Below are positions 5,598 through 10,796 of a DNA stretch of 64,000 nt, one piece after another. The position numbers were made by a program, and so were the translations under genes. Positions within the stretch are counted from its first letter, which is position 1, and the number at the start of each line of letters is the position of its first letter. The notes under the pieces are model-generated. The model worked only from the letters and a program-made list of their open reading frames with translations, had not been told where the DNA came from and did not search any database. The stretch lies in the IMG/VR virus record IMGVR_UViG_3300031418_000007, one strand, 5' to 3'. This DNA comes from a virus. Lineage: Duplodnaviria; Caudoviricetes.

Positions 5598-5933
5598 CTA
5601 TTTAATAATGAGGGTGATGGTATAACGAATGTAGGGGAAATTGATGATGTCTTCACCTACCTTCAGTGGATAGGAAAGATGCAAAGATAACGTAGGCTCT
5701 ACCAGTGCCGCACCACTTTCTGCCAGGTGTCTAACCGGCATGAGAATCGCCTCATACAGAGGGGATGATTCACCGTGGTGAGTTGCACGCTCAATGGCTG
5801 CATCGAGCTTCTGGTAAAACCAATCTTCCTTAACGGACTGAATGGGCATGTCCACTAAAATGTCGTCATCTTTAAGCAACTCCCACAGCTTCAGGTAACA
5901 AAGCCCGGTGTCGTTAAGGAGAGTATATTGCAT
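5598..5933 (-). CDS. Hypothetical protein (111 aa)
   Basis: Tightly packed in the minus-strand small-gene array. Confidence 0.7.
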   Translation of the reverse strand: MQYTLLNDTGLCYLKLWELLKDDDILVDMPIQSVKEDWFYQKLDAAIERATHHGESSPLYEAILMPVRHLAESGAALVEPTLSLHLSYPLKVGEDIINFPYIRYTITLIIK

Positions 5934-7711: not shown

Positions 7712-8005
7712 TTAAAATAAAAACGAGACCTTAAAGGTATTACCCAAAGGTGTTATGCGGACCAGCGCATCCGAAGGGACGCCTAGAGCTTTATCGGCAA
7801 GAACTTCCGCGAGGTTGTTTAGCGCCATCTCTTCGTTTGGCGTCAGTGTCCCCATAGAAACATTGCTTTCAATCGTAAAACCTAAATCTTCTAAACCCCG
7901 ACACAAAAGAAAACGACGTCTGTCACGTTCTAAGGGTTTATCTGATTGACTCATAGGATCACCTGGACCCAACCGAGATAATTCAACAAGGAACGATCTA
8001 GACAC
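7712..8005 (-). CDS. Hypothetical protein (97 aa)
   Basis: GAGG RBS, GTG start; first gene after the phuZ terminator. Confidence 0.7.
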   Translation of the reverse strand: MSRSFLVELSRLGPGDPMSQSDKPLERDRRRFLLCRGLEDLGFTIESNVSMGTLTPNEEMALNNLAEVLADKALGVPSDALVRITPLGNTFKVSFLF

Positions 8006-8035
8006 GTTAATGACCTCATTTGAATGAAAAAAATA

Positions 8036-8063
8036 ATACTACTAGGGCTTCCCCTAGTAGTAT
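8036..8063 (-). terminator. Intrinsic terminator after phuZ
   Basis: ATACTACTAGGG-CTTC-CCCTAGTAGTAT plus a T-run on the minus strand. Confidence 0.75.
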
Positions 8064-8085
8064 ATTCGTTTTAGTGTTTTTTTAC

Positions 8086-9066
8086 TTAGAAGTCAAAACC
8101 GTCTTCGCTGGCATTAGAAGAGAGATCTTCCTGCTTAACGAAAGTTGATTTGGCTTTCTGTTGAGCGCTTTCCAGCTCATCCAGTTCGCCCTTCAACTTC
8201 TGTACTGCTTCGCCGTGATCCAGCATCATTACAATGATGTTAGCATTAGGTGGATTGTTATCAGGATTGATAACGCCGGTTGCGCGATAAGCTGCATCTT
8301 TAAACAGTGGGCGCGCATTGTCGCGATGATCAAAGATAGAGCAGAAGGATACCGGCGGGTTACCGTTGTAGCTGGTTGCAGCATCATCAGTCAGGAAGTT
8401 GATCTCAGACAGCGCCGGCGGCAGGCCAGTGACTTTAGCGTATTGCAGGCTGTTGGCGATATCTTCAAAGTCCAGCTCTTCGTTCGACTCAGTCAGGAAC
8501 AGACTGGCGTAGTTGATGTTGAGGATCGCTTCGTCGTTGATTTCACGACGAGTACGCTCATCATTGACGATGCTGATGTGCGGGATGACTTTACCCAGGA
8601 AACGCTCTTGTACCTGGTTAGAGATCGACAGCATGATTTTCGCAGAGTTGCGACGCTCAACCAGAGAGGTGTTGTCTTTAACAAACACACCCACGGTTGG
8701 AATGTTGCGACTCAGCAGATAACGCATAACTGCAAAACCTTGACCCGAACCTGTACCGCCAGCGACCGACATGATCACAATACAGAACTTACCTGGCTTG
8801 TGAACTTTAAAAGACTCAGCGATAAACGGCGCGTGGTTCTCAAAGTTCAGCGTAACATCTTTACCAGAGCCCTGTGCTTTTTGACCCGGGTTCTTTGCCG
8901 AGTTCATGTGCAGCACTTCAAACTTTCCATCAGAACTGTTGCTTGCAGAACTGTCAAAGCCGAGGTACTTCGCTTCTTTCAGTACACGGGTGCCTGGGGC
9001 ATCAATGACATCTTTCATGATGTTGATACCAGTACCACCACAACCAATGACCATAAGTTCAGACAT
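8086..9066 (-). CDS. phuZ: Phage tubulin PhuZ
   Basis: GCGGTGINI, tubulin signature GGTGSG, 326 aa, acidic-aromatic C-terminal tail EDGFDF. Confidence 0.95.
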   Translation of the reverse strand: MSELMVIGCGGTGINIMKDVIDAPGTRVLKEAKYLGFDSSASNSSDGKFEVLHMNSAKNPGQKAQGSGKDVTLNFENHAPFIAESFKVHKPGKFCIVIMSVAGGTGSGQGFAVMRYLLSRNIPTVGVFVKDNTSLVERRNSAKIMLSISNQVQERFLGKVIPHISIVNDERTRREINDEAILNINYASLFLTESNEELDFEDIANSLQYAKVTGLPPALSEINFLTDDAATSYNGNPPVSFCSIFDHRDNARPLFKDAAYRATGVINPDNNPPNANIIVMMLDHGEAVQKLKGELDELESAQQKAKSTFVKQEDLSSNASEDGFDF

Positions 9067-9125
9067 GACACTACTCCGTTGTTAATAAAACTTTAAGTTA
9101 CGATTATTGTACTACATTCACACAG

Positions 9126-9134
9126 GTAATATAG
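9126..9134 (-). promoter_or_regulatory. Early promoter CTATATTAC for phuZ
   Basis: Exact motif 60 nt upstream of the phuZ start. Confidence 0.75.
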
Positions 9135-9189
9135 AACTGAAAAAATAACGGTGATTTAAAGATTATTTAAAAAGACAAAAAAATAAGGA

Positions 9190-10260
9190 TTGTTGCCTGA
9201 CACGCCTTTGGCGGTCAGGCTTAAATGTTATCCCCAGTCAGCACATCGATCGGAAACCCCAGATGGCAAGTTGCCACGCTATTCGGGATCTTCGCTTCGG
9301 TGCGAATGGCTGCGTCATAACTTCCGAGCCTGGGGAGTGCTCATGGGAAGGTTCTTTTACAATGTAACCTCTGATATAAGCTATCACGAGATTGAACACT
9401 GTTTGTTCCGTCAACTGGAATTTACCCAGTAAGGGTAAATAAGCTATGAAAAACATACTTACCCTTAATGAGTTGAGAAACATTGTGGAACATCCGTATT
9501 CCACTCTGTTATTACTTTGAGAGGTATAATGAACTTTCAATGAAGGTCCTGAGGTCGCCCTAACAGTTAGGGAGAACGTTCTCAACAGCAGCGCACAGCT
9601 GCAACGTTCTTCTACTCTTCCGCATATGCGATTCGCTCTCATTAGGCAATCGCACCCCCAGCTCAGGGATCGCTTAGTAGACCGGATCTGGCGGCGTGCC
9701 GCTCAGCAGTAGCCGCGCATTACCGAACCTCAGTTCGTCAAGGCGACCACAGGACTTCCATCAAAATCATGTGTTCATTACACTCTAATAATACAGAGTT
9801 GAAATAATTTAGCGTGGTCAAAAACAGAGTGGGATAAAATCCGTATTATCCCATTCGATTTGGGGTAGTGAAATTTACACGCTGAAGCACCGCGGGACAG
9901 TGGTTCGGTAAGTATTTGGATTACTTAACGTACAGCTGTCCAACAATATCTTGGTAATGCAGTTAAAAATAATAGTGTCCGCTAGAGCCATGGGCGTGAA
10001 AGTTCCCATTCTCATATTCTGTCCTTGTTATTCCCACACGGACGATGGGCAAGGAATTTTCACTTCGGGAGAAGTAAAAGGGTTTGCGACAGCAGAGTAA
10101 CCTCATCAGTGACTGTGCGATAATATCGGCTAATAATCAAAAACTGTGAATCGTTAATCAACCGTCGCAAATAACAATAACCCGAACCCACTCAGAGAGC
10201 GTCAAGGGGTAGCCCGTACAAATTGCAGTGGCTTTAGCCAGTACGTGCTTTATCTTGAAA
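9190..10260. ncRNA. Candidate large structured non-coding RNA (strand unresolved, G-U pattern leans +)
   Basis: About 1.1 kb without a credible gene in a gene-dense genome. Many nested helices, e.g. 9195-9201/9214-9220, 9257-9262/9330-9335, 9547-9559/9742-9754, 9571-9580/9603-9612, 9827-9837/9846-9856, 10083-10090/10164-10171. Confidence 0.6.
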
Positions 10261-10285
10261 TGAAGTGTTCTAGAAATACATATTA

Positions 10286-10537
10286 TTACTCAGCTGGCTG
10301 TGCAGTGGCTTTCTGTACCAGCGGAACGAGATCAGTGTAACCACCGATGTGCGCGCCATCTACGAAGATCTGAGGAACAGTATCGATGGGTTTACCCACA
10401 ACTGCTTGCAGATCAGCTTTGGTCATGCCGGCTTCAACGAAGTCAATATAGTTGTGTTCAACACCTTTGGCTTGACACAGTTCTTTTGCACGCTTGCAGA
10501 AAGCGCAACCTTCTTTGCCGTAGATAGTGACTTTCAT
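10286..10537 (-). CDS. Glutaredoxin
   Basis: CAFC active site; TVPQIFVDG..IGGYTDL. Confidence 0.92.
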   Translation of the reverse strand: MKVTIYGKEGCAFCKRAKELCQAKGVEHNYIDFVEAGMTKADLQAVVGKPIDTVPQIFVDGAHIGGYTDLVPLVQKATAQPAE

Positions 10538-10558
10538 AATATCTCGTTATGTGAAAAG

Positions 10559-10648
10559 TGGCAGAGAGTGAGGGATTCGAACCCTCGGTGGAATTACTCC
10601 CACACTTCCTTAGCAGGGAAGCGACTTCGACCGCTCATCCAACTCTCT
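10559..10648 (-). tRNA. tRNA-Ser(GCT)
   Basis: Acceptor stem AGAGAGT/ACTCTCT, discriminator G, encoded CCA; anticodon arm CTTCC-CTGCTAA-GGAAG; long variable arm; GGTTCGAATCC T-arm. Confidence 0.95.
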
Positions 10649-10656
10649 ATATAATC

Positions 10657-10714
10657 GGGCGGAGGTGTCGTGGCTCGATGTTACACCCTAAAGTGTGTTA
10701 CCACGACCCCCTCC
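10657..10714 (-). other. tRNA-minihelix-like hairpin between the two tRNAs
   Basis: GGAGG/CCTCC plus GTCGTGG/CCACGAC (12 bp) followed by a 3' GCCC. Confidence 0.45.
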
Positions 10715-10720
10715 ATAATG

Positions 10721-10796
10721 TGGCTGCCCCAACTGGACTCGAACCAGTGACATACGCATTAACAGTGCGCCGTTCTACCAACTGAACTATGGGGCA
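10721..10796 (-). tRNA. tRNA-Asn(GTT)
   Basis: TGCCCCA/TGGGGCA acceptor stem, GCCA end, anticodon arm GCGCA-CTGTTAA-TGCGT, GGTTCGAGTCC T-arm; 76 nt. Confidence 0.95.

Follow-up and report, generated by a model that had tools for sequence, protein, structure and literature searches.

Conserved structured RNAs in the gene-poor spacer between grx and phuZ of a putative chimallivirus-like phage

The giant phages 201phi2-1 and phiKZ produce small RNAs that derive from 5' untranslated regions (UTRs) by premature termination (PMC11512511). Structured non-coding RNAs adjoining transfer RNA (tRNA) genes are also found in phage DNA, GOLLD and ROOL being examples which form single units of 500-800 nucleotides (nt). 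Here we describe a 1.2-kb gene-poor stretch, called the spacer below, between the glutaredoxin gene (grx) and phuZ in 64,000 nt of viral DNA (the window, i.e. the whole stretch analysed), which belongs to an IMG/VR viral contig of 106.5 kb (record IMGVR_UViG_3300031418_000007; 46% complete). In our view, the most consistent interpretation is that the spacer holds separate conserved RNA units of the minus strand and that one of them, RNA-B, is an early, prematurely terminated leader which accumulates as a stable RNA. We assign this reading a probability of about 0.6.

The locus resembles those of the small RNAs of 201phi2-1 and phiKZ in belonging to a nucleus-forming jumbo phage, in having a phage-polymerase promoter and then a terminator upstream of a gene, and in being conserved among relatives. 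This layout of promoter, terminator and open reading frame (ORF) is read here from sequence signals only, namely a promoter-like motif at 9788-9812, a hairpin at 9485-9504 and an ORF start at 9456. The small RNAs of those phages are shorter than 250 nt, and the conserved one among them folds simply and lies upstream of a tail gene, whereas RNA-B is about 300 nt long (240-440 nt in relatives), is multibranch with a closing stem of 40-50 base pairs (bp), has no sequence similarity to them and is known here from its sequence. GOLLD and ROOL differ from the present locus in their single large units; here the units are of about 120, 125 and 300 nt and have no match in Rfam.

Structured units of the spacer

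Relatives of the spacer came from three sources: four IMG/VR contigs, seven metagenome records found via a conserved hairpin pattern, and Logan and ENA contigs reached via PhuZ homologues (34-90% identity) and via the small ORF described below. They comprise clade A (the window, L003/L006, L004/L005/L024-26 and L031/L032), clade B (L011-13 and L015), a group of L030 with L020, a group of L016/L021/L022 and the single lineages L014, L017 and L018. Clade A spacers are 88-91% identical with very few indels and, among close relatives, the spacer is column by column at least as conserved as the phuZ coding sequence. Third codon positions (synonymous sites) of phuZ differ by 34-35% between close relatives, and the high identity of the spacer therefore indicates constraint on the nucleotides themselves.

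An earlier note, made from the letters of the window alone, had proposed a structured non-coding RNA of about 1.1 kb in this region. The helix arms that it quoted (9241/9337, 9257/9330, 9282/9322, 9547-9559/9742-9754, 9810/9878 and, in the 3' part, TTTGCGAC at 10083 with GTCGCAAA at 10164) are all present at those positions. The region did prove mostly non-coding, and conserved structure was borne out for most of it, including Domain 2 (the present RNA-B), Domain 3 (TAGCGTG 9810/CACGCTG 9878) and the TCCTTG/CAAGGA helix of the 3' part, the latter two being supported by covariation. Across the relatives covariation was strong in all three RNA units, i.e. modules 1a and 1b and RNA-B. The exception is Domain 1 (9236-9345), which is most likely coding sequence. 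Folding energies divide in the same way, RNA-B having z = -7.1 compared with dinucleotide shuffles, while shuffles of Domain 1 fold equally well (z = -0.8 and -0.3 for the minus and plus strands, respectively).

The structured RNAs belong to the minus strand, which is the sense of all neighbouring genes. Folding of the whole stretch gives -378 kcal/mol for the minus strand versus -349 kcal/mol for the plus strand, and in every lineage tested the plus-strand fold of the central unit is worse by 6-37 kcal/mol. The closing stems of ten lineages contain 65 G-U pairs versus 2 A-C single mismatches; since an A-C would be a G-U on the opposite strand, this ratio indicates the minus strand. Conserved U-G pairs in modules 1a and 1b favour the sense strand as well, covariance models score 86-124 bits in sense and at most 28 bits in antisense, and the terminator tails and the promoter-like motif are all oriented along the minus strand. 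When z-scores against dinucleotide shuffles are taken in 300-nt sliding windows, those of the minus strand fall between -3 and -6 over 9150-9750 and between -2 and -3.6 over 9750-10350; most windows of neighbouring coding sequence have values close to zero.

The order of the units by transcription would be module 0, module 1a, an insertion hot spot, module 1b, RNA-B, a 72-codon ORF and a strong terminator. Their coordinates are presented in Table 1.

Table 1. Features of the spacer and its flanks in window coordinates
Feature	Position	Strand	Basis or remark
phuZ, downstream flank	8086-9066	-	PHROG 4733 tubulin PhuZ, E = 4e-59
phuZ early promoter and 5' UTR	9067-9140	-	TATATTAC at 9126-9133; identical motif before phuZ in Erwinia phage RisingSun
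Intrinsic terminator after the small ORF	9176-9221	-	Read from sequence: 11-bp G+C-rich hairpin at 9197-9221, then U runs
72-codon ORF	9238-9456	-	Open and in frame in 10 lineages; covers Domain 1
RNA-B, multibranch RNA of about 300 nt	about 9476-9787	-	z-scores, co-evolving arms, covariation; equals Domain 2
Early-promoter-like motif TTTCA-N4-TGTATTAT	9788-9812	-	Paralogue of phuZ promoter TTTCA-N4-TATATTAC
Module 1b, hairpin pair H4 and H5	9820-9945	-	Model R3, covariation, terminator scan
Insertion hot spot between modules 1a and 1b	9966-9974		Gene and tRNA gain and loss among relatives
Module 1a, pseudoknotted element of about 120 nt	9970-10088	-	Covariance model R1
Module 0, structured spacer	10089-10285	-	Conserved in five-way alignment; z about -2 to -2.7 on the minus strand
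grx, upstream flank by transcription direction	10286-10537	-	Pfam PF00462, E = 5e-13
tRNA-Ser	10559-10648	-	ARAGORN and Rfam; upstream of grx
tRNA-Asn	10721-10796	-	ARAGORN and Rfam; upstream of grx

Module 0 occurs in clade A and, as its proximal part only, in L030. It contains the predicted helix 10083-10090/10164-10171 and 25 nt directly after the grx stop that are fully conserved. In clade B (L011/L015) it is missing and module 1a begins 2 nt past the grx stop.

Module 1a consists of a hairpin H1 (CUUC-UCCC-GAAG), a two-step hairpin H2, a hairpin H3 in which the stem is variable and the CUUUCAC loop conserved, and then a U-rich tract. The GUCCG loop of H2 pairs with CGGAC about 60 nt downstream, forming a pseudoknot that is absent from model R1 and whose arms co-vary in four versions (GUCCG/CGGAC, GUCUG/CAGAC, CCCGU/ACGGG and CCCGA/UCGGG). 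Matches to model R1 were found at 14 loci, with scores from 138 down to 28 bits. With counts taken, here and below, from structure-fitted alignments or from structures that RNAalifold gave for the same sequences, 96% of the alignment cells are paired compared with 80% in shuffles and 43-51% with slid partners, and 15 of the 25 pairs have changed on both sides, compared with 7.8 ± 1.6 in shuffles (0/500). The genes preceding module 1a differ in L014, L018 and L021. A repeat search showed the CUUUCAC hairpin to be present as a single copy in the window.

Between modules 1a and 1b, L005 and L015 carry, at this exact position, an insertion of 330-360 nt with an ORF of 88-92 amino acids, which in L014 is accompanied by tRNA-Leu(UAA). 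In L016 and L018 a tRNA-Leu lies upstream of module 1b, L017 has an HNH-like ORF, and L031/L032 have about 40 nt of insertion remnants. We note that the accessory gene of 88-92 amino acids has its own Shine-Dalgarno sequence and terminator and a shared C-terminal motif SAYL-N-x-x-GKTIQ. It is present in three lineages of differing depth (L005:4734-5096, L015:3779-4045 and L014:3693-3962) and lost in others, the remnant lying at about 320-360 in L031. The HNH-like ORF of L017 (243 residues; L017:1894-2745) adjoins a downstream tRNA-like 3' half with T arm, acceptor strand and CCA. ARAGORN and Rfam both fail to recognize this half as a tRNA, and a mobile element or intron may here have invaded or split a tRNA-Leu gene.

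Module 1b is formed by H4 (9895-9941; inner stem UAAGUA/UACUUA) and H5 (9830-9853). In H5 an N-GGA-U loop is conserved on a stem that occurs in about eight versions and is followed by a U-rich tail, and the terminator scan gave a match at 9853-9830(-); with this conserved loop, co-varying stem and U-rich tail, H5 would be a terminator-like end of the upstream unit. On the sense strand model R3 reaches the scores given above in 11 of 12 loci (45 bits in L030). Paired cells amount to 94% compared with 80% in shuffles, half of the pairs (10/20) have changed on both sides (0/500 shuffles) and the covariation score is 0.34 versus 0.12. A kissing loop between H4 and H5 (AAUCC/GGAUU) was considered and rejected, the pairing being lost in L003 and L015.

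The A/C/U-GGA-U loop of H5 on its short co-varying stem recalls the CsrB/RsmZ sponges of CsrA/RsmA. In clade A the loop of the RNA-B terminator hairpin (9485-9504) is ACGGAUG or AAGGAUG, and we take both loops to resemble high-affinity CsrA/RsmE hairpins. True sponges have 7-20 GGA hairpins, whereas one (H5) is conserved across the lineages here and the second is confined to clade A. By a rough hand count GGA is not enriched overall (about 12 in about 800 nt, compared with about 11 expected from base composition). A CsrA sponge was rejected on the ground that just one GGA loop is conserved.

GOLLD, ROOL, OLE, tmRNA (transfer-messenger RNA), RNase P RNA and group I/II introns are not represented, and of the last three the earlier note had likewise seen no core motifs. 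With cmscan against Rfam 15, nothing in 9067-10285 matched at the gathering score or at E ≤ 10, and neither these families nor known self-cleaving ribozymes were matched (Rfam; ARAGORN for tmRNA), tRNAs being the only RNAs found. Five relatives gave no Rfam 15 RNA family at E ≤ 0.5 besides tRNAs. Modules 1a and 1b and RNA-B thus appear to be three undescribed RNA families outside Rfam, with boundaries, strand and covariation support.

RNA-B as a candidate early leader

The excess of structure in RNA-B (z = -7.1 for the unit 9478-9790) recurs in seven other lineages, with z-scores of -4.9 to -8.4. Its closing stem, in which a 5' arm (9728-9786) pairs with a 3' arm (9520-9571) to enclose the multibranch core, has five different sequences at the level of clades. 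Pairing energies are -32 to -59 kcal/mol for cognate arms and -8 to -41 kcal/mol for arms combined across clades, and in every lineage the cognate combination pairs best. Compensated pairs number 5 in clade A (0-2 in slid controls), 12 between L011 and L015 (0-2 in slid controls; zero broken pairs) and 21 when L030 is added (1-6 in slid controls), a contrast which is somewhat inflated because the structures derive from the same alignments. Short motifs of the core (GUCU-R-C-Y-A-R-GC and UAUGCGGAAG) are kept, whereas hairpins at the periphery are gained and lost and the overall size ranges from about 245 nt (L016) to 440 nt (L030).

The early-promoter-like motif in front of RNA-B aligns with the phuZ promoter, the first transcribed bases included. 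The window has six TATATTAC-type sites on its minus strand, of which the one at 9133 is spaced like the RNA-B motif. Among the relatives the motif is a perfect TATATTAC in L015 and TATATAAC in L030, and it is recognizable in all clades. Sites of this type resemble the extended -10 early promoter of phiKZ-like phages (PMC8244752, PMC11512511). At the other end of RNA-B, the hairpin at 9485-9504 was matched by the terminator scan (9504-9485, minus strand), and in clade B and L014 the terminator at this end is strong, with a U7 tract.

In a seed metatranscriptome, contigs of a relative with about 90% identity cover phuZ, 9238-9716 and 10034-10755; depth varies from contig to contig, and elsewhere in the window contigs are lacking. 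These contigs are compatible with transcription of the region.

From the layout of promoter, terminator and ORF, a prematurely terminated early leader would be the best-supported mechanism. An early polymerase, acting at a promoter of the virion-RNA-polymerase type, would make RNA-B soon after infection. Most transcripts would end at the terminator of RNA-B and accumulate as a stable RNA, with the closing stem protecting the ends, and a minority would read through to become messenger RNA (mRNA) for the small protein. Having no promoter of its own, the 72-codon ORF would be reached only via read-through of the RNA-B terminator. In trans, RNA-B could bind a protein or serve as a decoy.

Several points weigh against this interpretation. 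In clade A, to which the window belongs, the U tract of the RNA-B terminator is weak and the -10-like element of the promoter motif has two mismatches to TATATTAC. The metatranscriptome evidence consists of assembled contigs, which carry neither strand nor ends and may include DNA. The way in which the covariation counts were obtained, as described for module 1a, also reduces their weight. With respect to strand, H1 would have a GNRA (GGGA) loop if read on the plus strand, and some Domain 1 helices have G-U pairs on the plus strand only.

In 6S RNA and Y RNAs, as in RNA-B, the ends are paired in a long irregular stem, which could protect the RNA and present a protein-binding surface. Unlike RNA-B, 6S RNA is a single rod of about 180 nt with a central bubble; the predicted fold of RNA-B is multibranch and has no match to 6S in Rfam. 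Y RNAs differ in requiring the partner Ro60. The RNase III stalks of ribosomal RNA operons and T7 early mRNAs offer a further analogy, in that a long imperfect duplex is formed from the flanks of a structured core, and by this analogy RNase III might cut the closing stem of RNA-B and release the core. In contrast with these stalks, no conserved bulge of the kind typical of T7 sites was identified in the RNA-B stem.

The small ORF and alternative explanations

The earlier note saw no credible gene in the spacer and thereby missed the 72-codon ORF that covers Domain 1. A Shine-Dalgarno-like AAGGG lies 8 nt before this ORF, its ATG is conserved, and gene callers mark a gene of 71-73 codons at this position in relatives. 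Across ten lineages indels are in frame and replacements are conservative (I/V/L, F/Y and S/T). In the product, the N-terminal half is hydrophobic, the linker varies and the basic C-terminus ends in W-Q-x-A-I-W-G-F-R; the Gly and Arg codons of this ending show synonymous changes. At the RNA level the segment has local hairpins at fixed places with differing stems, yet the z-score is only about -1, and covariance model R2, built for Domain 1, captured too few pairs.

In our judgement 9238-9456 is rather probably a real gene for a small protein, with an mRNA that also has some structure. Some of the data speak against coding. Differences by codon position follow the order third, first, second only weakly (for example 8/4/14 and 24/21/35 for the first, second and third positions, respectively), and among close relatives the third positions diverge less than those of phuZ. 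The AlphaFold model is poor (two helices; pLDDT, the predicted local distance difference test, of 59), a protein-atlas search gave a low recognition score, and no Pfam or PHROG family was matched. We note that the terminator hairpin following the ORF is conserved and that it is inverted in L004, where 5846-5871 is a perfect 26-nt reverse match to 9195-9220 of the window and the structure is kept.

Other explanations of the spacer differ in how well they survive these data. A possible but doubtful extension is that RNA-B represents a new class of early ornate trans-acting RNA of nucleus-forming phages and that, separately, module 1a is a new self-processing or 3'-end-forming element. The injected virion polymerase would then synthesize RNA-B within minutes, and RNA-B would be closed or processed via its stalk of 45 bp and act as a ribonucleoprotein scaffold or as a decoy against a host RNA-binding factor or an RNA-targeting defence, possibly together with the basic 72-residue protein encoded just downstream. 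Module 1a could in this case belong to the phage tRNA/early operon.

We consider it unlikely that RNA-B is a cis-regulatory leader, i.e. a riboswitch or attenuator which senses a ligand, a protein or a tRNA and controls the 72-codon ORF through formation of the terminator. The order of elements is what such a leader would have (promoter, structured leader of 300 nt, intrinsic terminator, about 25 nt, Shine-Dalgarno sequence and an ORF with no separate promoter), and junction motifs are conserved while peripheral hairpins vary. However, the closing stem of 40-50 bp far exceeds P1 of known riboswitches, no Rfam aptamer was matched, the regulated product would be a tiny protein of uncertain reality, and no alternative antiterminator pairing was noticed, though this was not searched for systematically.

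Somewhat less likely again is a single sense transcript of about 1.1 kb, such as a 3' UTR belonging to the tRNA-grx operon, in which the modules would be domains of one ornate RNA. The earlier note had likewise taken the region as one contiguous RNA. Gene and tRNA insertions are tolerated at about 9970, clade B is without module 0, module 1a follows different genes in different lineages, and the units occur in varying combinations and contexts. The interior of RNA-B varies from about 240 to 440 nt among lineages, the fold predicts zero long-range pairing between modules, terminator-like hairpins and an early-promoter-like motif lie inside the region, and strong terminators follow RNA-B in clade B and L014. 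These observations outweigh the collinearity of the modules and their equal conservation in clade A, where the internal terminators have weak U tracts and the promoter motif is imperfect.

The earlier note had assigned the G-U pairs, and hence the RNA, to the plus strand, antisense to all neighbouring genes. This now seems highly improbable. Beyond the GGGA loop of H1, it can draw on the G-U pairs in TTCGGGA/TTCCGAG and on the CUUCGG sequence; against it stand the better minus-strand fold throughout, the 2 A-C versus 65 G-U in the closing stems, the low antisense scores and the opposite orientation of the terminator tails and promoter motif. Least probable of all is that there is no functional RNA and that the spacer consists of decaying tRNA or gene remnants or of DNA-level palindromes (protein-binding sites or recombination scars), for although the region is variable, with a hot spot of gene gain and loss bordering tRNA genes and remnants of inserted genes in L031/L032, it is at least as conserved as phuZ and rich in compensatory changes, and an asymmetry of G-U versus A-C would be meaningless for double-stranded DNA.

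Genomic setting, other carriers and implications

The nearest named PhuZ proteins are those of Shewanella phage FishSpeaker and Erwinia phage RisingSun. Because they are merely 36-40% identical to the PhuZ of the window, the phage is best placed, on this comparison, as a putative member of an uncultured chimallivirus-like clade. The position beside tRNA genes, to which the earlier note drew attention, was confirmed, with tRNA-Ser and tRNA-Asn 270-500 nt upstream and tRNA-Leu inside the region in relatives. Around the 3' end of phuZ, 7950-8400 shows a strong excess of structure on both strands (z of -3.5 to -5.5), and a perfect 12-bp hairpin at 8036-8063 obtains a terminator score in both directions.

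Sequencing runs that contain the stretch are from phyllosphere, seed, soil, plant and dairy metagenomes. Near-identical or related sequence was seen in phyllosphere and seed metagenomes and, at high depth, in a seed metatranscriptome (runs X1-X4 and X18). The occurrence in phyllosphere and seed points to a plant-associated bacterium as host.

No cultured phage was matched by blastn with the spacer or with its L016 version, or by tblastn with the small ORF. In Erwinia phage RisingSun a poorly coding stretch of 1.3 kb with modest z-scores precedes phuZ (L029:2675-4000) and could be a distant analogue in a cultured phage; models R1 and R3 found no match in RisingSun. This stretch has just two small annotated ORFs, on the opposite strand (gp15 and gp16), together with a strong terminator, and an H3-like hairpin with a CUUUCAC loop is present at about 2747-2768. 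A contig whose PhuZ is 42% identical (L033:1-990) has a gene-free 1 kb before phuZ in which only the sense strand is structured (z to -5.1) and which R1 and R3 do not match; a CUUUCAC-loop hairpin occurs there at about 48-70. In L034 only a short structured gap precedes phuZ.

Because every carrier is uncultured and comes from seed, phyllosphere or other metagenomes, the practical value of these results lies, for now, in models with which a cultured carrier could be sought. More generally, the locus indicates that phage tRNA regions can harbour stacks of independently evolving RNA modules. Nucleus-forming phages have to begin gene expression ahead of their protective compartment, and the defences to which they are mainly exposed are those that target RNA. 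Since gene expression thus precedes the compartment, an abundant, structured early RNA such as that proposed here would be a plausible new player at the pre-nucleus stage of infection.

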